IMG/VR virus record: IMGVR_UViG_3300012940_000042
Location: 1 to 45,732 of that record
Origin: a virus
Lineage: Duplodnaviria > Caudoviricetes
Length of the DNA stretch: 45,732 nt
Direction: 5' to 3' (one strand)
In this document: piece after piece, positions 4,492 to 41,483 of the stretch
Layout of the letters: each line of letters begins with the position of its first letter
Position numbering within the stretch: position 1 is the first letter of the stretch
Notes under the pieces: generated by a model
Database searches by the model: none
What the model saw: the letters and a program-made list of their open reading frames with translations, nothing else
Told to the model about the DNA's origin: nothing
Position numbers and translations under genes: made by a program

Positions 4492-5661
4492 TTATTTTTT
4501 AATGAATTTTAATTCCATATTCAATTCTACATCTACTTCTAAACCTTGTGTTTGTTCAATCATATTAACATAATTAAGTAAAAATATTAAAGCTGTATCT
4601 TTACCTGTTACATTTATTCTATTAGTAGAAATAATAGTATTTTCTTTGATTTTAATATTTTTATCTTTAATTTTTTTATAGGTTTCAAATATAGATTCTT
4701 CTTTTGTAGGCTTAGAATTATAAGTTGTCGGTTCATTTATAACACTATTTTTATCATTTTCTTTTGGAATAGAAGTATTATTTTCTTCTGATTTTTGATA
4801 AATTGCTTCTATTGGTGCAAAAACTGAATCTGGTACATTTTGTTTTAACTTTATAATATTATTTATTACTTTTTCAGATGGTACTTTTTCTTGTAATAAA
4901 CCATTTTTTAATTTTTCTTTATAAGAAGTTTTATATTTACTAACAGTAGCTTCATGAATATTAAAAACTTTTGCTACATCACTATTTTTCATTTCTGGAT
5001 AATGATTAAATACATAAAATAATTCTTTTTCCTCAATTTTTGAACCTTTCATTTTAGTTCCTCCTTCAATAAAACCAGTTTTAATAGAGTTATTTTGTAA
5101 TTCTTTAATAATTTTTTTAATTAATCTTGAGATATAAGATTGTGCTATATTAAATTTATTTGCAATATCTTGTTGTTTCATTCTTTCAAAAAAATACATT
5201 TTAAAAATTTTTCTATCTCTTTCAGATAATTGCTTTAATGTCATATCCAAAATTGCTTTTAACCCATCATAATCCTCAAAATGTGTATCTTTTATTTCTG
5301 CTGGTAAAACATCAATCAAAGTTAATTCAGAGCCATCAAAATCTACAGTTAAAACACTATCTAAAGAAACATTATTTTTATGCCTTCTCATTTTCCTATT
5401 ATGCATTAAAATTTCATTATGTATAAGCTTAGATGCATAAGTTACAAATTTAATACCTTTATCTAAATCAAAATTTTTATAAGCTTTAATTAATCCAATT
5501 TTAGCAATAGATACTAAATCTTCTATATCATCAACATTTTTAAATCTATTAGCGATATGATAACATAATCTTTCATTGATTTTTAAAAGTTTTTCATAGG
5601 CTGCATAATCACCTCCTTTAGCAGCTCTGATTAACTTATCATTTTCAGCAGAATAATTCAT
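4492..5661 (-). CDS. Sporulation-type (SigE/SigK-like) sigma-70 factor with a C-terminal HTH-containing extension
   Basis: NERLCYHIANRF, EDLVSIAKIGLIKAYKNFD..KGIKFVTYASK.IHNEILM, region 4 QQDIANKFNIAQSYISRL; ~186 extra residues. Confidence 0.9.
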   Translation of the reverse strand: MNYSAENDKLIRAAKGGDYAAYEKLLKINERLCYHIANRFKNVDDIEDLVSIAKIGLIKAYKNFDLDKGIKFVTYASKLIHNEILMHNRKMRRHKNNVSLDSVLTVDFDGSELTLIDVLPAEIKDTHFEDYDGLKAILDMTLKQLSERDRKIFKMYFFERMKQQDIANKFNIAQSYISRLIKKIIKELQNNSIKTGFIEGGTKMKGSKIEEKELFYVFNHYPEMKNSDVAKVFNIHEATVSKYKTSYKEKLKNGLLQEKVPSEKVINNIIKLKQNVPDSVFAPIEAIYQKSEENNTSIPKENDKNSVINEPTTYNSKPTKEESIFETYKKIKDKNIKIKENTIISTNRINVTGKDTALIFLLNYVNMIEQTQGLEVDVELNMELKFIKK

Positions 5662-5676
5662 TAGTTCACCTCATTT

Positions 5677-6273
5677 TTAATCTATGAAGCCAATCTTAGA
5701 TGCATTTTTTTTTAGAAGTTTTTTAATTTTCATAATCAAACGACTAACTTGTGGTTGAGATAAATTAAATTTTTCAGCAATTTCTATTTGACTCTTATTT
5801 TCAAAAAAATACATTTTAAATATTTCTTTATCCCTATCCTTAATTGAATCTAATGTTAATTTTAAAACTGAATCTAAACCTTTATAATCTTCATAGCTAA
5901 TATCCTTTTCTGGAGTAGGAATGATATCTAATAACGTCATTTCTTTTTCACCATCTTCTCCAAAATTTGCATCCAACGAAATAAACTTAAAATTTTTCAT
6001 TTTACGTTCTTTTCTAAAATTTACTAATATTTCATTTTTCATAATTGTCATAGCATAAGTTGCAAATTGGATATTTTTATTTAAATCAAATGTTTTAATT
6101 GATTTAATTAATCCAATTTTAGCTATAGATGCAATATCATCAATACTATCTAAGTTTTTAAATCTCTGCGCAATATAATAACATAATCCTTGATTTTCTA
6201 TTAGAAATTTATCAAAAGCTTCTTTATCACCATTTTTGGCAGCTTTAATTAAATCTAAATTATCTATATTCAT
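5677..6273 (-). CDS. Sporulation-type (SigE/SigK-like) sigma-70 factor
   Basis: DDIASIAKIGLIKSIKTFD..KNIQFATYA..IMKNEIL and SQIEIAEKFNLSQPQVSRL; tandem paralogue of 4492..5661. Confidence 0.9.
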   Translation of the reverse strand: MNIDNLDLIKAAKNGDKEAFDKFLIENQGLCYYIAQRFKNLDSIDDIASIAKIGLIKSIKTFDLNKNIQFATYAMTIMKNEILVNFRKERKMKNFKFISLDANFGEDGEKEMTLLDIIPTPEKDISYEDYKGLDSVLKLTLDSIKDRDKEIFKMYFFENKSQIEIAEKFNLSQPQVSRLIMKIKKLLKKNASKIGFID

Positions 6274-6394
6274 AGATTAGCTCCCAAATTAAATTTATTG
6301 TATTTGCTATAAAGAATCCAACAAACATTGGAAGAGTATGGTAAATTAATCTTTCTCTTTCATTCATGTGAAATATATTGGATAATTTTTTCAT
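6260..6394 (-). CDS. Small membrane peptide (44 aa, MKKLSNIFHMNERERLIYHTLPMFVGFFIANTINLIW...)
   Basis: Translated by hand; ATGA overlap with the 3D gene, SD AGGTGGGG. Confidence 0.55.
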   Translation of the reverse strand: MKKLSNIFHMNERERLIYHTLPMFVGFFIANTINLIWELIYEYR

Positions 6395-7043: not shown

Positions 7044-7643
7044 TTATCCAATATATTGATAATAGCCTCTAGTTGCTTTTTGAATTTTATTATTATACTT
7101 TAATACTCTATTTATAGTATTTGTAAAGTTATTCCAATGCCAACCATATTCTTTATTTAATATTTCTTCTAATTTAGAAGATTTAAGTGGTTGCCCAGCT
7201 TCTTTTAAAATAAAAGCAATTTTATCTGCTACTATTTTAATATCTTTATAATTTTTACCAATATTACCAGTTAATTTAACTTTTTCTTTATCTTTAAGTT
7301 CATTAATTTCAGTCTTGTCAAATTTTTCTTCTATTATATTATCTTTTTTATCTTCAAACTTTTCATTAAACTTTTGAATAACATTTTCAACAGGAACTTG
7401 AGGAATCAATTTTGAAAGATTATCAACAACATTTGTCAATTTAATTAATGTATTTTCGTAATCAATTGTGTCCTTTATGTAGTCTTTATTTTCTTTATCT
7501 AATTGTGCAAGTCGAATTTTTATGTCATAAAATTCTTTTTCAATCCTTTCGGATTCTTCTCTGTAAAGTTGCTTAAGCTCCCTTTTTTCATCTAACAACA
7601 TTTTAACTCTTTCTCTCAAATAATCTCTTTCAAAATAGCTCAT
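7044..7643 (-). CDS. Rok-like nucleoid protein / repressor (coiled coil plus winged helix)
   Basis: N-terminal FERDYLRERV..L and C-terminal ILKEAGQPLKSSKL..IL...YGW..NNFTNTI..V...N.KIQKATRGYYQY resemble B. subtilis Rok as recalled. Confidence 0.7.
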   Translation of the reverse strand: MSYFERDYLRERVKMLLDEKRELKQLYREESERIEKEFYDIKIRLAQLDKENKDYIKDTIDYENTLIKLTNVVDNLSKLIPQVPVENVIQKFNEKFEDKKDNIIEEKFDKTEINELKDKEKVKLTGNIGKNYKDIKIVADKIAFILKEAGQPLKSSKLEEILNKEYGWHWNNFTNTINRVLKYNNKIQKATRGYYQYIG

Positions 7644-8157: not shown

Positions 8158-8862
8158 GTGGATAAAATTGAAGATTATATGCATCTAGTTGATGTTACTA
8201 TAAAAAGACAACATCATGATGGGCGATTATTTATTAAAAACTTAAAATTAGAAAAAGATGACGTAAGACAAATAGGAATGATTGGCTTAGTAAAAGGCTT
8301 TAAAAGTTTTAATAAAAAAATAGGTAAGGATATTAAAACACATTTAATTGCCAGTATTAATTATGAATTAAAAAACTTTTATAGAAATAATAATTATTTA
8401 ATTAACTTTTCCAGAAAAGCTAAAGAGATTGGGCGTAAAATTTATCAATTAAATATTGACTCCATAGATGAAATTAAAAAAATGTTTAATTGTAGTAAAT
8501 TATTGGCAGAACAAGCCTTAAATTATAAAAAGTATTTGGAAGAAGATGTTATAAGCTTAGATAGTAAAATAAATAATGATGGGAGGGAAATAATAGAACA
8601 ATTAAATTATTCACATTTTAATTTAGAAAATTATGTAATAAGAAAAATTGAAGCTGAACATCGCTTATCTTATTTAAGTGAAAGACAAAAATTAATTCTA
8701 TTTTATACAATTAAAGGAAAATATCAGCGAGATATTGGCAAGATTTTAAATATATCACAAAAAACAGTAAGTAAAGAAATGAATAAAGCAATAGAAATAT
8801 TAAATAATTTAAATGAGGAGGAAGAAGATATTGTTAACGTTGGAACAAGAAGAATTGTTTAA
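8158..8862 (+). CDS. Divergent SigF/SigG/SigB-type sigma factor
   Basis: DDVRQIGMIGLVKGFKSFN, INFSRKAKEI, ISLDSKI, LSERQK...QRDIGKILNISQKTVSK; region 2.3-2.4 degenerate. Confidence 0.8.
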   Translation: MDKIEDYMHLVDVTIKRQHHDGRLFIKNLKLEKDDVRQIGMIGLVKGFKSFNKKIGKDIKTHLIASINYELKNFYRNNNYLINFSRKAKEIGRKIYQLNIDSIDEIKKMFNCSKLLAEQALNYKKYLEEDVISLDSKINNDGREIIEQLNYSHFNLENYVIRKIEAEHRLSYLSERQKLILFYTIKGKYQRDIGKILNISQKTVSKEMNKAIEILNNLNEEEEDIVNVGTRRIV

Positions 8863-9685
8863 TGATAATATTAATTTAGTTGGATTTACACTTAAAAAAT
8901 TTAAAGTTATTAGAAATATTGGTAATTATATAGATACAGATGATTTTTACCAAGTAGGTTGCATTGGTTTAGCTAAGGCTGTAAAATATTTTAATCCTGA
9001 ATTAGGCTTTGAATTTTCAACCTATGCTGTAACTATGATTTATGGTGAAATAAGACGAGCAATAAGGGATGCTAATATTAGTGTTAAATTTTCTAGGAGA
9101 ACTAAAGAAATTGCAAATAAAATTAAAAAAGAACAATTAAATTTAAAAACTCCTGAGGAAATTATGGAAAAATTTAAAATAGGTTTTGGTGCAGCAATGG
9201 ATATTATAGATTATCTTAAACAAAAGCATGTGTCATTGGAAACAAAAATAGAAGATAGTGATAAACTAACATTAAAAGATATGCTTAGCAAAAATGAAAA
9301 TATGGAAGATAATATAATAAATAAAATAGACTTAGAAAGATACTTAGAAAATTTAACAGATATACAGAGAAAAGTAATTAAATTATATTTAAAAGGTTAT
9401 ACTCAAATAGAAATAAGTAATAAAATTGGTGTTAGTCAAGTTCATGTATCTAGGACTATTAAAAAATCTATAAAAAGAATTGAAAATATGAGAAATAATA
9501 TAGCTGAAGAATTACCTAAGAAAGGAGGAAAAGTTAGGCGAGAATTTAGAATTAATAATGGTAAATCTAAGAAAGAAATGTTTATTGAACTCATAAATAA
9601 TAATACACCTAAAGAAGAAATAATTAAAAAATTAGAAATTAATCCAGATTCTTTTAATAAATATTTAAAGCTATATGTTAGCTAA
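8831..9685 (+). CDS. SigF/SigG/SigB-type sigma factor with a short C-terminal HTH-like tail
   Basis: DDFYQVGCIGLAKAVKYFNPELGFEFSTYAVTMIYGEIRRAIRD, TQIEISNKIGVSQVHVSR; TTG start after GAGGAGG. Confidence 0.9.
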   Translation: MLTLEQEELFNDNINLVGFTLKKFKVIRNIGNYIDTDDFYQVGCIGLAKAVKYFNPELGFEFSTYAVTMIYGEIRRAIRDANISVKFSRRTKEIANKIKKEQLNLKTPEEIMEKFKIGFGAAMDIIDYLKQKHVSLETKIEDSDKLTLKDMLSKNENMEDNIINKIDLERYLENLTDIQRKVIKLYLKGYTQIEISNKIGVSQVHVSRTIKKSIKRIENMRNNIAEELPKKGGKVRREFRINNGKSKKEMFIELINNNTPKEEIIKKLEINPDSFNKYLKLYVS

Positions 9686-9696
9686 AGGGGTTTTCT

Positions 9697-9945
9697 ATGA
9701 AAATAAGTTATGATTTTATTAAGCAATTAAAGGAAACAAATTGCATGAAAATTATCCAAATAATAAAAAATCATAATATATATGAATTTTCAATAGATAC
9801 ATTACCTGAAGGAAGAGTAATTGGTACAATATTATTAGAAGATGAAGTAATTGATGAATTAGGTAATCTTATTGGTTATTTTGGAATAGACTTCCATTAT
9901 AATATATTAGTTTATAATCTATTTAGAAAAGAGGAAAAGTTATGA
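9697..9945 (+). CDS. Hypothetical protein
   Basis: ORF track; SD AAGGGG; ATGA-coupled to spoIIID. Confidence 0.65.
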   Translation: MKISYDFIKQLKETNCMKIIQIIKNHNIYEFSIDTLPEGRVIGTILLEDEVIDELGNLIGYFGIDFHYNILVYNLFRKEEKL

Positions 9946-10193
9946 AAAGCCATATTAAAGAAAGAGTAATTTTGCATGCTAATTTAATGATTTCTAATGA
10001 CAACACTATTAGAAGTGTTGCAAGAATGACAGGTTGGTCAAAATCTACAGTATTAGTTGACCTAAAAAAAAGATTACCTATAATTAATCCAGAATTATAT
10101 CAAAAGGTGAAAAATAAAGTTAAATATAATACTGCTATTAGACATATAAGGGGCGGGCAGGCAACTAAATTAAAATATAGTGAGGAAGATTAA
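9942..10193 (+). CDS. spoIIID: SpoIIID-family sporulation transcription factor
   Basis: HIKERV...TIRSVA...GWSKSTV..DL..RLP.INPEL...V......AIRHIRGGQATKLKY matches SpoIIID along its length. Confidence 0.92.
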   Translation: MKSHIKERVILHANLMISNDNTIRSVARMTGWSKSTVLVDLKKRLPIINPELYQKVKNKVKYNTAIRHIRGGQATKLKYSEED

Positions 10194-10754: not shown

Positions 10755-11062
10755 CATTCCCCTATATAGGAATTATGAGAAAAATCGAACTTTTCAGTTC
10801 ACCGTGTGGGACCATCTATCTCCTTCTCATGGAGCACGGCGTATTTCAACAATTTATCTCATAACCTCTTGGAAGAGTGGTCGGGTTTCAAATAAGAGAG
10901 TACTACTTTTATTTCCTCTCTATCCTAAATTGTGTAAAATATGTATTTTTACACACCTATATTCGTCCTCTCTAACAGGCAACAATCCGTCGTTTAAGGT
11001 TTAATTGAGAATCCACGACCGAGAGGTGCTTTTATATAGCGGATACACCTTCTAACCACTTA
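10755..11062. ncRNA. Putative structured non-coding RNA of unknown family (strand uncertain; GNRA loop favours minus)
   Basis: GC-elevated intergenic island with at least seven nested helices identified by eye. Confidence 0.55.
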
Positions 11063-11073
11063 ATCTTCATTAT

Positions 11074-11319: not shown

Positions 11320-11429
11320 TATAAATCACCTATTTCCATTATATACATAATTTATTAATGTATTCAATTTTCTGAAAATAATTTTTACAATGAATATAAA
11401 AACATTTTAGTTTAATATTATAAATAGAA

Positions 11430-13939: not shown

Positions 13940-13964
13940 GAGGAGATTTTATCTCCTCTTTTTT
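13938..13964 (+). terminator. Terminator-like hairpin directly before the terL SD
   Basis: AAGAGGAGAT-TTT-ATCTCCTCTT followed by TTTT. Confidence 0.6.
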
Positions 13965-13977
13965 GGAGTGGATAGTA

Positions 13978-15693
13978 ATGGCATTTATTTATAAAGATAA
14001 ATATTATGAAAATGCACATGATTTAATTGTTAAAGAACCTGAAGCTGCAGCGGATTCTGTTGTATTTACAGAAGCATTTTTAACTGTTCCAGATGGAGAG
14101 GACGGAATATCTCCATTTAAATTTAATAAACCTGAAAAAAATGAATATAGAAATTACCTGTTTGAAATTTATAGAGATAAACATCCAAGAATTGTAGTTG
14201 TTACTGGAAGGCAAGTTGAAAAATCAACAATGGCAAGAAATAAAATTATTGCTGATATGCATACTAATGAAGGCTTAACAGCTTTATATACTGCGCCACG
14301 TTCTGAACAAGTTTCTCGTTTTTCTAGTGAAAGAATTAGAATTGCTATGAGAGATTCACAAGAAGGTGCATTAAAAGATTCTATTTTAAGGAAAGGTAAA
14401 GATACAGCGTCATTTATTCAATTTGATTCTAAATGTAACTTATATTTATATTCTTGTTGGGCAGATGGTGATGCTATTCGTGGTATTGCAGCTCAAAGAG
14501 TTTATGCGGATGAAGTTCAAGATATGACATCAGCAGCAAGAGAAACTGTAGAAGAATGTCTTGGACACGCGCCCGGTGGAGGTCAAATGTACCATTTTGG
14601 TACGCCTAAAAACAGTGGTTCTGAATTTCATAAATTATGGGAATTATCAGACAGAAAAGAATGGTATATTGAATGTGTTAATCCTAGATGTAAACATCAA
14701 CAAAAAATTACAGTAAATAATATTTTTAAACCTGATGAAAATAAACCAGCTTATTTTGGTTGTTCTAAATGTAAAAAGGAATTAGATAGGTCTAAAGGTA
14801 GATGGATTTCTGAAAATCCTAATGGAGCATCATATTCTGGCTATCATATAACTCAACTTATGTGTTCATGGATTTCAGCTGACCAAATACTTTATAAAAA
14901 ATTAACATATTCTGAACAAAAATTTAATAATGAAGTTTTGGGAGAATTTCATAATGTATTTGGTAAAACTCTTGATTTACAAGATATTATGGATTGTACA
15001 GATGCTAATCTAAAATTTCCTATAAAAGGTCATAAAGGACCTAACTTTATGGGAGTTGACTGGGGTTCTGGTAATAATTCATTTTCAGTAATAACTATTA
15101 TTGGACCAGAAGAATTTGAAGTAAATGGTAAAAAGGAAACAAAATTAGTTTATAGATATGTTAAAAAATATAATAAATCTGGTTATGGAAAAGTAATGAA
15201 AGATATGCATAAGTTAATTGAAGCATTTAATGTTGAAAATATAGTAATAGATATTGGTGATGCTAGACGGCAATTTGAAGAACTATTAGTTGAATATCCA
15301 AATAAAGTTTCAGCATGTCAATATGTTTTAGCATTGAAAAATCCATATAAATGGGATAAAAAAACAAGGATTCATACTTGTGATAGAAGTTATCATATTG
15401 AAAAAGTTATAGATTTATTTCATAAAAATAAAATAGTTATTCCTTATGATAAATTAACTATTCAAAAAACTGATGAATTAGGATGGCTTTTTCAACATTT
15501 AACTTCATTAGAGGCAGAATGGGTTGAGCCTTCTTCTGGTAATACAGGTTATACAAGATATTTGCATAGTGACCCTGATGATGGATTCCAAAGTCTTGTA
15601 TATGCATATTTAGCTTATGAAAGACGTAAAGCTAAAGTTAAAAGCAATATTCGAGTTAAAACTTTAGATTACAGTGTATTATTTAATGACTAA
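13978..15693 (+). CDS. terL: Terminase large subunit (lambda gpA-like, with zinc ribbon)
   Basis: Walker A-like GRQVEKST, IRG, Walker B VYADEVQD, GTP coupling motif, CxxxxC...CxxC, nuclease MGVDWG, DPDDGFQS. Confidence 0.9.
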   Translation: MAFIYKDKYYENAHDLIVKEPEAAADSVVFTEAFLTVPDGEDGISPFKFNKPEKNEYRNYLFEIYRDKHPRIVVVTGRQVEKSTMARNKIIADMHTNEGLTALYTAPRSEQVSRFSSERIRIAMRDSQEGALKDSILRKGKDTASFIQFDSKCNLYLYSCWADGDAIRGIAAQRVYADEVQDMTSAARETVEECLGHAPGGGQMYHFGTPKNSGSEFHKLWELSDRKEWYIECVNPRCKHQQKITVNNIFKPDENKPAYFGCSKCKKELDRSKGRWISENPNGASYSGYHITQLMCSWISADQILYKKLTYSEQKFNNEVLGEFHNVFGKTLDLQDIMDCTDANLKFPIKGHKGPNFMGVDWGSGNNSFSVITIIGPEEFEVNGKKETKLVYRYVKKYNKSGYGKVMKDMHKLIEAFNVENIVIDIGDARRQFEELLVEYPNKVSACQYVLALKNPYKWDKKTRIHTCDRSYHIEKVIDLFHKNKIVIPYDKLTIQKTDELGWLFQHLTSLEAEWVEPSSGNTGYTRYLHSDPDDGFQSLVYAYLAYERRKAKVKSNIRVKTLDYSVLFND

Positions 15694-15740
15694 TTGCATA
15701 ATTGATGAATAATTATTAGTAAATTATAAATTATTAAATT

Positions 15741-15836
15741 AGGGTATTTAATATCCTTATCGAGGTATTTACTCATTTCTTGTTCCTCCTCTATAACTTT
15801 ATGGGCTCAACAAAATATTGTTGGGCCTATTTTTTA
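15741..15836 (+). ncRNA. Putative small RNA antisense to the tail assembly chaperone translation initiation region
   Basis: Short 5' hairpins, anti-SD TTCCTCCTCT, intrinsic terminator GGGCTCAACAA-AATA-TTGTTGGGCCT-ATTTTTT; 30 bases complementary to 24301-24336. Confidence 0.65.
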
Positions 15837-15853: not shown

Positions 15854-17233
15854 ATGGCAAGCTCAATGCAGAAAATAGGAAATTTTTTCAAAAATATATT
15901 TTCTAGTGAAAATAATAGCACTAGAAAAGGTAGAGTTTACCCTAACAGGATGAACTATCTATATGAAAAAATGCGTGTTGAAAATGATAGACTTAAAGCA
16001 TATAATGAATGTTGGGTTATGTATGTTGAAGACCCTAGGATTTCTGCTGCCATTGATACTACTGCTGGCTCTGCAACTAATGGTAGCTTTACAATACATT
16101 TTAATAAAGCTAAAACTAAAGTGGAAAAGGTATTAAATGATGCAGATGAAATTATCAATGGTATAAAGAAACGTTGTCAAATAGATTTAAAAATTCTAGG
16201 AATAGCTAAAGAATTGCTTATTCTAGGAGACGCTTTCCTAGAAGTTATTGTAGATTTTAGTACAAATGAAATTATTAATTTAAAAAAATTACCTGCTAGA
16301 AGTATTTTTAGAATTGAAGATGAATTTGGTACATTAGTTGGCTTTGAACAAAAAAATGAGCTTAATGAAGTTATTGCTGAATTTGAACCATGGCAAATTC
16401 TCCATATGAGATGGAATCATTTCTCTGGTCAACTTTATGGTACATCTATGATTCGTTCTGTAAGAAGTGTATATAAGAAATTAAAAATGACTGAAGAAGA
16501 TTTAGTTGTAAGAAGAAGAACAAGAGCAGGTCTTAAATTACATCATTATGGAGCAGACCCACAAGAACCATTAGAACCAGATGAAGTAGATGAATATATT
16601 GAACAAAATTCATCTTCTCCACTAAATGTTAGGACGGATTTTTATTCTAATGGTAAGTGGAAAATTGATGTATTAAAATCAGATGATGGTGTAAATCAAA
16701 TTGAAGATATTAAACATTTAGAAGATGCATTATTTATTGGGCTTAGAACTCCAAAAGGTTTACTTGGAATAGGCGAAGACCCAAATAGAGCAACTTTAGA
16801 AAGACAAGAAGTTGCATATATTCGTTTATTAAATGAAGTTACTAATGTTATTAGTGACCAAATCAGACAAGTATTTGATTTAGGATTAACTCTTAAAGGT
16901 CTTAATCCTGAAAATATTGAATATGAACTTATTTGGGATGAAAAGACAGTTGAAGATATAAACCAAAAAGCTGAAAGATTAGTGCTTCTTACTAATGTCG
17001 GTTTCATTTCTAAAGAAACAGCAACAGGTGAGTTGGGATATAATTTTGACGATGAACAGTATAAAATTAAGCAAGAAATTAAAAATAATCAAGATATAGA
17101 TTATACTCAATTAAATACAACAAAATTTATTGACCCTAATTCTATAATTCAAAGTTCTAGGGAAAAATTAAAACATCAAGGTCGTTCAGATAATGGAGAT
17201 GGGCAAAATCAAAATCCTAATCCTCAAAATTAG
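15854..17233 (+). CDS. Portal protein
   Basis: Follows terL; LGDAFLEV, WQILHMRW...LYGTSMI, FISKETA..ELG; ATG 15854 after AAAGGAG. Confidence 0.88.
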   Translation: MASSMQKIGNFFKNIFSSENNSTRKGRVYPNRMNYLYEKMRVENDRLKAYNECWVMYVEDPRISAAIDTTAGSATNGSFTIHFNKAKTKVEKVLNDADEIINGIKKRCQIDLKILGIAKELLILGDAFLEVIVDFSTNEIINLKKLPARSIFRIEDEFGTLVGFEQKNELNEVIAEFEPWQILHMRWNHFSGQLYGTSMIRSVRSVYKKLKMTEEDLVVRRRTRAGLKLHHYGADPQEPLEPDEVDEYIEQNSSSPLNVRTDFYSNGKWKIDVLKSDDGVNQIEDIKHLEDALFIGLRTPKGLLGIGEDPNRATLERQEVAYIRLLNEVTNVISDQIRQVFDLGLTLKGLNPENIEYELIWDEKTVEDINQKAERLVLLTNVGFISKETATGELGYNFDDEQYKIKQEIKNNQDIDYTQLNTTKFIDPNSIIQSSREKLKHQGRSDNGDGQNQNPNPQN

Positions 17234-17249: not shown

Positions 17250-18098
17250 ATGAATTTGGTTGAAAAACTTCAAAAAGAAGCAGAAGATTTTATGGCAAAA
17301 AGACTTAAAACAGAAAAGAATATTACAAAAGATTTCTTAAAAATTATAGATGATTTAGAAGATGAAATTGCTACTGAATTATCAAAACAAGGTAATATCA
17401 ATTTGAATTATGTTACTATTATAGTTCAACAAGTTTTAATGCCAGTTATACAAAAATATGCTTCTAAACAATTAGATTATTTAAATAATGTTATTGATAA
17501 TACATTTAATGCTGGAATAAATCAAGCACAGCAATTATTAAGTCTTACTCCATTAGATATTCCACCTTTAGAAAAAGATAAGATGGAAAGACAAAATGAT
17601 TATCAAGATACATTAAGTGCTTTATTACTTTATTCAAATCAATTAATAACTGGATTAAACAATGATTTAAATAATAAACTTAATAGTGACATTACAAGCA
17701 TGTATATAATGTCAAAAAATCAAAATAATCCTTCTATAAATAAATCTGAAAGAGATACAGAAAAAGATTCAATTTTTAATACAGTTTTATCTGGTACAGT
17801 TATAGCTAAGTATATAAAATCTAGTTTCAATAATATTAGAAATAGAGCTGACATTATTTCACAGACAGAGGTAATTAGGGCTCTTAATAGTGGTATCTTA
17901 TTAAGATATATAAATGAAGTCAAATATGTTAAATGGATAGCAATTCAAGATAATAGAGTATGCAGGAATTGCTTAAGTATGTCAATTAATGACGATGGAA
18001 TTTATCCGGTAGGTTCTATAAGTCCTCCACCATTGCATCCTAGATGCCGTTGCGTATTAATTCCATATGATGAAAAATGGTTATCTATTGCATACTAA
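17250..18098 (+). CDS. Minor head morphogenesis protein (SPP1 gp7 / MuF family)
   Basis: RADIISQTEV.RA.N.G, WIAIQDNRVCRNC, PPLHPRCRC. Confidence 0.88.
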   Translation: MNLVEKLQKEAEDFMAKRLKTEKNITKDFLKIIDDLEDEIATELSKQGNINLNYVTIIVQQVLMPVIQKYASKQLDYLNNVIDNTFNAGINQAQQLLSLTPLDIPPLEKDKMERQNDYQDTLSALLLYSNQLITGLNNDLNNKLNSDITSMYIMSKNQNNPSINKSERDTEKDSIFNTVLSGTVIAKYIKSSFNNIRNRADIISQTEVIRALNSGILLRYINEVKYVKWIAIQDNRVCRNCLSMSINDDGIYPVGSISPPPLHPRCRCVLIPYDEKWLSIAY

Positions 18099-20196: not shown

Positions 20197-20235
20197 AAAT
20201 AAAGGGTAATATTTATTATTATCCTTTATTTTTTT
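20197..20235 (+). terminator. Intrinsic terminator after the capsid gene
   Basis: AAATAAAGGGTAATA...TATTATCCTTTATTT followed by T-run. Confidence 0.65.
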
Positions 20236-20608: not shown

Positions 20609-20666
20609 AATAAAGTATAGTATTCTGTATATTATAAATATGCAGATATTATACTTTATTTTTTTT
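20609..20666 (+). terminator. Long terminator-like hairpin before the head-tail adaptor SD
   Basis: AATAAAGTATAGTAT.CTGTATATT / AATATGCAGATATTATACTTTATT then T-run. Confidence 0.5.
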
Positions 20667-24297: not shown

Positions 24298-24319
24298 TAA
24301 ATAGAGGAGGAATTAAGAA

Positions 24320-24781
24320 ATGAGCTTACTCGATAAAATTAAAAATGGTAAGAAAAATTATAAAGTAATTCAATTTCCAAATACAGAGGAGAAAGTTGCA
24401 ATTGTTCTTTTATCATCCGAAGATTTTATTGATGCTAAAGTAAAAACAGAACAATACTGTAATGAGAAAGGAATTACAGATGATACTTATATAGAAATTG
24501 AGCATCAAATACAAATTGTTTATAAAGCATTAAGAGATAAAGATGATATTAGTAAAAAATTAGCAGATTCTATTGATGAAATTAGGTCATTAAGAGTAGA
24601 TGAAATTAGTTATATAATGACTGAATATAATCAATTCCAAATGGAAGTTAGTCCTCTCTTAAATGCTATTAATGAAGAACAATTTGAGGAACTAAAAAAA
24701 ACATTAGGGAAAATGAGTTGGAAAGATTTAAATGGAGAGTCCTTACTCGCTTTAAGAAATTTCCTAATGAGCCTTGTGTAA
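24320..24781 (+). CDS. Tail assembly chaperone (G-type)
   Basis: Between tube and tape measure; strong SD GAGGAGG; slippery A8 run. Confidence 0.8.
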   Translation: MSLLDKIKNGKKNYKVIQFPNTEEKVAIVLLSSEDFIDAKVKTEQYCNEKGITDDTYIEIEHQIQIVYKALRDKDDISKKLADSIDEIRSLRVDEISYIMTEYNQFQMEVSPLLNAINEEQFEELKKTLGKMSWKDLNGESLLALRNFLMSLV

Positions 24782-41255: not shown

Positions 41256-41327
41256 TATGCCTACTAGGAATCGAACCTAGAATAAGAGATTAGAAATCTC
41301 TTGTTATATCCATTTAACTATAGGCAT
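41256..41327 (-). tRNA. tRNA-Arg(TCT), no encoded CCA
   Basis: Cloverleaf: acceptor ATGCCTA/TAGGCAT, anticodon arm AGAGA-TT TCT AA-TCTCT, T arm CTAGG-TTCGATT-CCTAG. Confidence 0.92.
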
Positions 41328-41407: not shown

Positions 41408-41483
41408 TGGCTGAGAAGATAGGACTCGAACCTATAACTACCTGATTAACAGTCAGGTGCTCTACCGATTGAGCTACTTCCCA
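41408..41483 (-). tRNA. tRNA-Asn(GTT)
   Basis: Canonical 76-nt cloverleaf; CCTGA-CT GTT AA-TCAGG; 3' GCCA. Confidence 0.95.

Follow-up and report, generated by a model that had tools for sequence, protein, structure and literature searches.

A candidate small RNA between the terminase and portal genes of a contractile-tailed phage, with predicted pairing to the tail assembly chaperone start

In tailed phages, heads and tails are viewed as products of independent assembly lines, with gene order, terminators and ribosome-binding-site strength setting the balance between them. A short gap between the terminase and portal genes of the phage analysed here raises the question of whether the head locus may also encode an RNA directed at tail assembly. 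The window, by which we mean the whole analysed stretch of 45,732 nucleotides, is an entire virus record (IMGVR_UViG_3300012940_000042), linear, approximately 42% complete and belonging to a contractile-tailed phage, with genes for terminase, portal, head, sheath, tape measure and lysis. A previous sequence-only reading had proposed that this gap encodes a trans-acting small RNA (sRNA) covering the SD and start codon of the tail assembly chaperone gene. The features relevant to this proposal are the following:

13963..15693 (+), terminase large subunit gene, upstream neighbour of the gap (phrog_675, E 3e-93)
15702..15730 (+), alternative, weak SigA-like site (TTGATG, 17 nt, TATAAA), read from the sequence and without the conserved last T
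15707..15735 (+), promoter-like site of the SigF/SigG class (GAATA, 17 nt, AATTATT), predicted RNA start at ~15740-15741
15741..15836 (+), candidate sRNA of ~96-100 nt, comprising a 5' hairpin (15741-15757), a largely open pairing region and the terminator
15757..15794 (+), pairing region of the candidate sRNA, with three blocks plus an unpaired loop
15757-64 (+), anti-codon-3-6 block of the pairing region
15772-81 (+), anti-AUG block of the pairing region
15783-94 (+), anti-SD block of the pairing region
15801..15836 (+), intrinsic-terminator-like hairpin (15801-15830, 13 pairs) with T-run
15854..17233 (+), portal gene, downstream neighbour of the gap (phrog_9232, E 6e-17)
24301..24336 (+), target site, read from the sequence: SD, ATG 24320 and codons 2-6 of the chaperone gene
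24320..24781 (+), tail assembly chaperone G, 153 aa (fold match, position and slippery site)
24694-24700 (+), A AAA AAA, predicted as a -1 slippery site; the GT form extends in the -1 frame to 24987

Assembly of the tube on the tape measure requires G/GT chaperones, as established for lambda and HK97, and the proposal depends on the target being one of them. Searches of the 24320 product against Pfam and PHROGs returned no match. Its structure model (pLDDT 89) has the HK97 TAC 2ob9 as top match among 48,161 chains (Z 9.9, rmsd 3.7, 96 aligned), with unrelated rows of the comparison at Z 5 or less, and its Atlas lead is Phage_TAC_5 (0.90). The gene lies between the tape measure gene and that for the tube, itself assigned by position and a weak PHROGs match. 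In 4/4 genomes (the window and the three relatives introduced below), it contains CTA AAA AAA AC, behind which a conserved -1 frame stays open. The modelled fold, the position between tube and tape measure and the slippery site, all shared with the lambda and HK97 G-GT chaperones, identify the gene as a G/GT tail assembly chaperone with a predicted -1 shift, as the sequence-only reading had held. For the lambda and HK97 chaperones, no RNA regulator of initiation was found in the literature searched.

The six blocks of complementarity proposed for the two sites all read as described, and the predicted duplex between the element and the chaperone start comprises 31 pairs, namely the 30 Watson-Crick pairs claimed across the SD, ATG 24320 and first codons, plus U24314-G15782, with an RNAduplex energy of -43.0 kcal/mol. 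When the element was compared with 6,090 windows of 60 nt from both strands (mean -10.9, sd 4.4), its top non-self site was the chaperone start, the next unrelated site reaching -32.0. None of 2,000 dinucleotide shuffles attained -43.0, nor did any of 2,000 shuffles in which the anti-SD part was held fixed (mean -27.5), and the pairing therefore exceeds a generic anti-SD match, in agreement with the initial claim. When all intergenic regions of the window were aligned without bias to all gene starts, the element-chaperone pair ranked 1st out of 1,910. The 98-nt unit folds with a z of -4.4, and most of the pairing region is unpaired in the predicted fold of the RNA. The loop GTATTTA within the pairing region is left unpaired in the window and is common to the seeds of the relatives. 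As a separate observation, GGTATTTA is present twice in the window RNA (15763-15771 and 15743-15750); the second copy, looped out of the RNA's own duplex, has a match in the seed of the relatives and pairs with the chaperone starts of those genomes.

The second-best site of the RNA, at -32.0 and with 10 perfect pairs across the ATG, is the start of a 44 aa open reading frame (6260-6394, minus strand) located between a 3D-domain gene and a SigE/K-like sigma gene; this frame has no homologue in the relatives. Rfam covariance models returned no family for the element at gathering score, with only tRNAs detected in the window and no family in loci L016 or L018; the sub-threshold scores, for VrrA (E 0.48) and suhB (E 0.61), were half their thresholds. 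The two tRNA genes (41256-41327 and 41411-41483, minus strand) lie between the ribonucleotide reductase and primase genes. The plus strand of the window element contains merely a 21-codon TTG frame, and no open reading frame is conserved on either strand.

The sequence-only reading had put forward conservation of the complementarity in related phages as a check on its proposal. Three relatives carry both sites, G001 (locus L002), G002 (L004) and G003 (L005), and are compared here with the window (G000), to which their capsid proteins are 68-72% and their chaperones 52-53% identical. All three encode a predicted RNA of 57-59 nt between terminase and portal as well, at a distance of 8.3 kb from the target. 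In these gaps, GTAAGGTATT precedes an anti-SD, behind which lies a different terminator hairpin, and the relatives' chaperone genes begin with ATG AAT ACC TTA CA (MNTLQ), versus ATG AGC TTA CTC GAT (MSLLD) in the window. In each relative, the element pairs with its own chaperone gene across the SD and codons 1 to 5, so that the complementarity is kept in 3/3 relatives with both partners changed with respect to the window, and the proposed check does not refute the sRNA proposal. Across the four genomes, the element is thus encoded away from its target (8.3-8.5 kb) and pairs imperfectly over the ribosome-binding site, with 20-31 pairs over SD and AUG. This pattern indicates pairing kept with compensatory change between the window and the three-relative clade, and it counts as one independent covariation contrast, because seed and target are nearly the same in all three relatives (93% alike). 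The seed is 93% identical among the relatives, versus 69-76% for the upstream gap.

The element and the chaperone start are reciprocal best partners in 4/4 genomes. With accessibility counted, the chaperone start ranks first for the RNA among the 59, 168, 32 and 56 called starts of the window, G001, G002 and G003, respectively. Conversely, the chaperone start finds its best partner in the gap, out of 9,090, 20,386, 4,786 and 9,062 45-nt windows. Within 15 orthologous late genes, the chaperone is the best target in every genome (-34.3, -22.9, -27.0 and -23.4 kcal/mol), ahead by 13 kcal/mol or more of the next gene, which reaches -15.0 or weaker. Shuffles with the anti-SD fixed reached the observed energy in 0, 2, 1 and 6 of 2,000 cases. 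The RNAs of the relatives reach -20 to -22 on the window's start and -26 to -29 on their own, and the window's RNA -43 on its own. Several results temper this picture. Among the three relatives there is no preference for the cognate target, and some best-partner margins are thin, at 0.2 and 1.8 kcal/mol for two comparisons in G001 and 0.6 in G003. In unbiased letter alignments, the relatives' pair ranks 5th of 689 in G002 and falls outside the top 8 of 18,357 in G001 and of 1,782 in G003, meaning that a blind letter-match screen would not have picked them. The first six codons of the portal gene are also invariant, and invariant first codons are hence not special to the chaperone. The second-best start for the G001 RNA, at -20.6 versus -22.9, is that of a tyrosine recombinase gene (G001:C1 85742, plus strand), probably a match by chance.

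Viral sequence scans returned the same three contigs with both sites each time, scans of genome contigs found no relative, and the metagenome scan yielded the window's own record and two 1.2 kb pieces. Of ten seed-pattern matches, seven were attributable to chance and lacked phage structural genes nearby. Loci L001, L003, L006 and L035, which have the chaperone but not the gap, were excluded from the counts, and the terminase-portal region is missing from two human-gut phage records that have a related tube. Capsid and chaperone homologues also occur on longer contigs of 70-110 kb, where MS[LI]L starts predominate. The wider chaperone family, with 288 representatives, gave an alignment too diverse for a locus scan. 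The element is not general, since the Tepidibacter plasmid-phage and Brevibacillus phage Emery, with terminase-portal gaps of 25 and 12 nt, show no outstanding partner for the gene behind the tube.

Complementarity of this kind could also operate at the DNA level. The direction of the G-U pairs did not discriminate as an RNA-versus-DNA test, given that the strand-swapped duplexes are nearly equal (plus/plus -43.0, minus/minus -42.7 kcal/mol), and the pairing alone consequently does not show RNA-level action. The plus orientation proposed for the element rests on its predicted terminator and the promoter-like site, and not on the duplex G-U pairs, which do not fix it. Formally, the two sites are inverted repeats with equally stable strand-swapped duplexes, and with a tyrosine recombinase encoded in G001 they might flip the portal-to-tube block by DNA inversion. 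We regard this as highly improbable: the perfect arms span only 10-12 bp and are broken by unequal gaps, the orientation is the same in 4/4 genomes (although contigs cannot show absence of the other), no resolvase-family gene is present in the five records, which are fragments, and the match falls exactly on SD and AUG, bracketed by promoter- and terminator-like sites. The contigs of X1, possibly the sample of origin, contain no strand-switch joint at the two sites, with the same proviso that contigs cannot show its absence.

An explanation devoid of any RNA function is that the complementarity is a by-product, with the opposite strand of the element being either the beginning of a small gene, SD included (28 aa, 15776-15690), or a fossil inverted copy of the chaperone start. 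The minus strand of the window does have a strong SD and an ATG, with MSKYLDK in register with MSLLDK, and a 30-codon TTG frame occupies that position in G001. In G002, however, the frame is cut off after 8 codons, and in G003 it differs; the 28 aa frame has no Pfam match, a fossil would not track two different chaperone starts, and the seed is more conserved than the surrounding gap, all of which make a by-product decidedly improbable. A cis-antisense RNA or type I toxin-antitoxin arrangement was likewise rejected, the opposite-strand 28 aa frame of the window not being conserved.

The intrinsic terminator attributed to the element agrees with prediction: the window has the 13-pair hairpin and T-run on the plus strand only, and 3/3 relatives have, at the corresponding position, another hairpin of different sequence that also ends in a T-run. 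The distance from the end of the T-run to the portal ATG is 17 nt in the window and 17-19 nt across 4/4 genomes. On the origin of the RNA, its own promoter or release from the terL 3' UTR had both been contemplated. Its own promoter is favoured by the SigF/SigG-class site found in the gap in 4/4 genomes, with that of the window matching at only 10/12 positions. Against the SigG consensus, the gap sites score 10/12 in the window and 12/12, 12/12 and 11/12 in the relatives, where the site takes the form GTATA-17-CATTAT(A/T) ~5 nt ahead of the RNA. Sites at 12/12 occur in 1 of 300 random 200-nt windows per genome; the 11/12 level is reached by 22-33 of 300, and the window's 10/12 site is weaker still. 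The overlapping SigA-like site of the window appears, by eye, to have a similar counterpart in L005, and not in L002 or L004.

A second site of this class is located ahead of the operon that contains the terminase gene:

11392-11420 (+), promoter-like site GAATA-17-AATATTA, 83-88 nt upstream of phoH

Sites of the form GAATA-17-AAT(T/A)(A/T)TA lie 83-88 nt upstream of phoH in 4/4 genomes, and the GAATA-17-AATTATT of the window's gap nearly equals them. Because the same class precedes the phoH-terminase operon, it looks like the late promoter of the phage, and these sites, from which the class motif was itself drawn post hoc, are suggestive of a late promoter plausibly read by the phage's own SigF/G-like factor. 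The layout of the gap promoter resembles by eye those of the SigG-dependent Clostridioides difficile promoters CD2375 and sspA listed in Table S5 of PMC7438776, a source that also stresses the overlap between SigF and SigG. A third site of the class (17810-17838, plus strand) sits inside the head morphogenesis gene, ~300 nt ahead of the protease gene, in 4/4 genomes; it is conserved but overlaps conserved residues.

Portal expression from the gap promoter would need read-through of the terminator, which makes the element the 5' leader of any read-through portal transcript. The leader might then act in cis, pairing over 8.4 kb of one such transcript, or be titrated by chaperone mRNA, which could also free the portal SD. 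In the predicted folds of read-through RNAs from the window, G001 and G003, some of the leader is paired with sequence around the portal SD, yet this pairing is weak, varies between genomes and is absent in G002. The duplex also ends short of the terminator stem and cannot antiterminate by overlap, and a single unbroken transcript of 8.4 kb is less likely given the conserved terminator-like hairpins that follow the capsid gene, so that we give action in cis or on the leader only a slim chance. These hairpins lie at ~20197-20235 (plus strand) after the capsid gene in 4/4 genomes and at 20615-20660 (plus strand) after the next gene in 3/4, suggesting stepped-down expression of the tail genes.

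Candidate readers of the promoter are encoded in the window itself:

8158..9685 (+), two SigB/F/G-like sigma factor genes (TIGR02980, E 4e-21 and 3e-43, under the curated cut-off)

A SigF/G-like sigma homologue is present in 3/3 relatives. Four sporulation-like sigma genes and a SpoIIID gene are packed into 6 kb of the window (4492-6273, minus strand; 8158-9685 and 9942-10193, plus strand), the sigmas being two SigE/K-like and two SigB/F/G-like, and G001 carries a SASP gene and a DUF444 gene. From the sporulation-like sigma and SpoIIID genes, the host is likely a spore-forming member of the Bacillota. Elsewhere in the window we noted five degenerate AT-rich repeat copies with 24-nt spacing at the contig start (44-184), possibly origin or binding-site repeats; a protein with a Rok-type winged-helix domain (7044-7643, minus strand), a possible xenogeneic-silencer-like repressor; and a GC-richer non-coding stretch between the RNase H and PC4-like genes (10760-11070), with no Rfam match and no similar DNA in the relatives.

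These genes bear on the possibility that the RNA acts during dormancy, with host SigG or SigF firing the promoter in the forespore to silence tail assembly, the phage genome becoming entrapped in the spore. In two relatives the SigG consensus is matched more closely by the gap promoter (12/12) than by that of phoH (11/12), SpoIIID and the four sporulation-like sigma factors are encoded in the window, G001 adds a SASP, and both virospores and phage sporulation sigmas are documented in the literature (PMC12991052; 10.1101/2021.11.12.468384). The presence of the same promoter class ahead of the phoH-terminase operon nevertheless points to a general late promoter, the window's site is the weakest of the four, and lysis and head filling would go on with a single tail gene blocked. 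We consider such a spore lock unlikely; were it true, it would constitute an active, phage-encoded, post-transcriptional route to spore entrapment during dormancy.

The idle loop of the window RNA raises a different alternative, in which the RNA of a resident genome, carrier or prophage, acts on incoming relatives as an RNA counterpart of the tail assembly blocker Tab. The GGUAUU of this loop, unused in the RNA's own duplex, pairs with the AAUACC codons of the relatives at -26.4 to -29.9, G001 has a tyrosine recombinase, and STnc6030 shows that an RNA directed at structural genes can exclude (10.1101/787010). The best pairing is nonetheless with the phage's own chaperone (-43), so that an escape mechanism would be needed; the promoter looks late rather than constitutive, the loop may simply be ancestral, and the window, 42% complete, contains no integrase. 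Exclusion seems to us improbable.

What the analysis itself establishes is that the two sites are complementary and stay so while their sequences change, that a terminator-like hairpin follows, and what the target is. The element is thus a real, clade-restricted, conserved antisense element against the tail chaperone start, and most likely a trans-acting phage sRNA. The reading that we place first, and to which we would give about an even chance, is that of an early-terminated late-leader RNA that represses chaperone translation in trans, delaying or damping tail assembly. The predicted SigF/SigG-class promoter in the gap would fire in the late phase, a timing suggested by the same class preceding the phoH-terminase operon, probably through the phage's own SigF/G-like factor. 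Most transcripts would stop at the hairpin, yielding an RNA of 57-100 nt, while read-through would produce portal mRNA in a lambda pR'-tR' or StxS layout. The RNA would cover the chaperone ribosome-binding site in trans, lowering G and frameshifted GT, and tail output would become threshold-gated relative to heads, as tube assembly on the tape measure requires these chaperones, in what would amount to an incoherent feed-forward loop. Counting against this reading, a repressor of an essential gene made alongside its target is not obviously useful. Late repression, the spore lock and exclusion share a common physical step, and it is quite probable that this step takes place under one or another of the three.

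If the head locus does encode a conserved RNA against the tail chaperone, the two assembly lines would be directly linked at a catalytic bottleneck. The 60-nt element and 40-nt target can be put to a reporter test in Bacillus subtilis without phage culture, and, should the promoter prove forespore-driven, whether phages actively hold back maturation for spore entrapment would become directly testable. Late-leader terminators could likewise be screened against chaperone starts in other phage genomes.

The initial reading had known of no described equivalent, a statement that is too strong in kind, with partial precedents in StxS, STnc6030 and CisR, and that stands insofar as no trans-encoded phage RNA aimed at a tail chaperone was found in the literature covered. 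Lambda PreS/LPR1 is described as targeting host genes (10.1101/2024.10.31.621285), and the sole direct tail-gene target noted in the passages considered from a phage sRNA review (PMC12197685) is that of STnc6030. STnc6030, from Salmonella prophage BTP1, is likewise a phage RNA complementary to the mRNA of structural genes and blocks phage; it is cis-encoded, exceeds 700 nt and is fully complementary to its target through overlapping it (10.1101/787010), whereas the candidate sRNA is trans-encoded and short, with imperfect pairing on the ribosome-binding site. CisR of Vibrio cholerae is also a trans base-pairing sRNA, repressing the phage mRNA cep and lowering phage output, but it is reported as host-encoded, 3' UTR-derived, Hfq-assisted and directed at a filamentous phage (PMC13250501). 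Tab shares with the candidate a phage-encoded block at the tail assembly step, exerted not by RNA but by a protein that acts on the tape measure of invading phages and is accompanied by an anti-Tab (PMC10884400).

The closest likeness is to StxS of Shiga-toxin phages, which arises by early termination just behind the late promoter and represses by base-pairing a gene of the downstream late transcript (PMC7547250). As described there, StxS is Hfq-bound and processed, targets stx1AB and host rpoS in Escherichia coli, and is not required for phage propagation. Unlike StxS, the candidate would act through 20-31 pairs on an essential virion assembly factor 8.4 kb downstream, and the phage, likely one of Bacillota, encodes sigma factors itself. 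The StxS-type layout of promoter, terminator and structural operon, with no room for a new promoter, is found in 4/4 genomes, the late timing being inferred, and in both cases a short, early-terminated late leader is or would be the molecule that base-pairs to a gene of the downstream late transcript.
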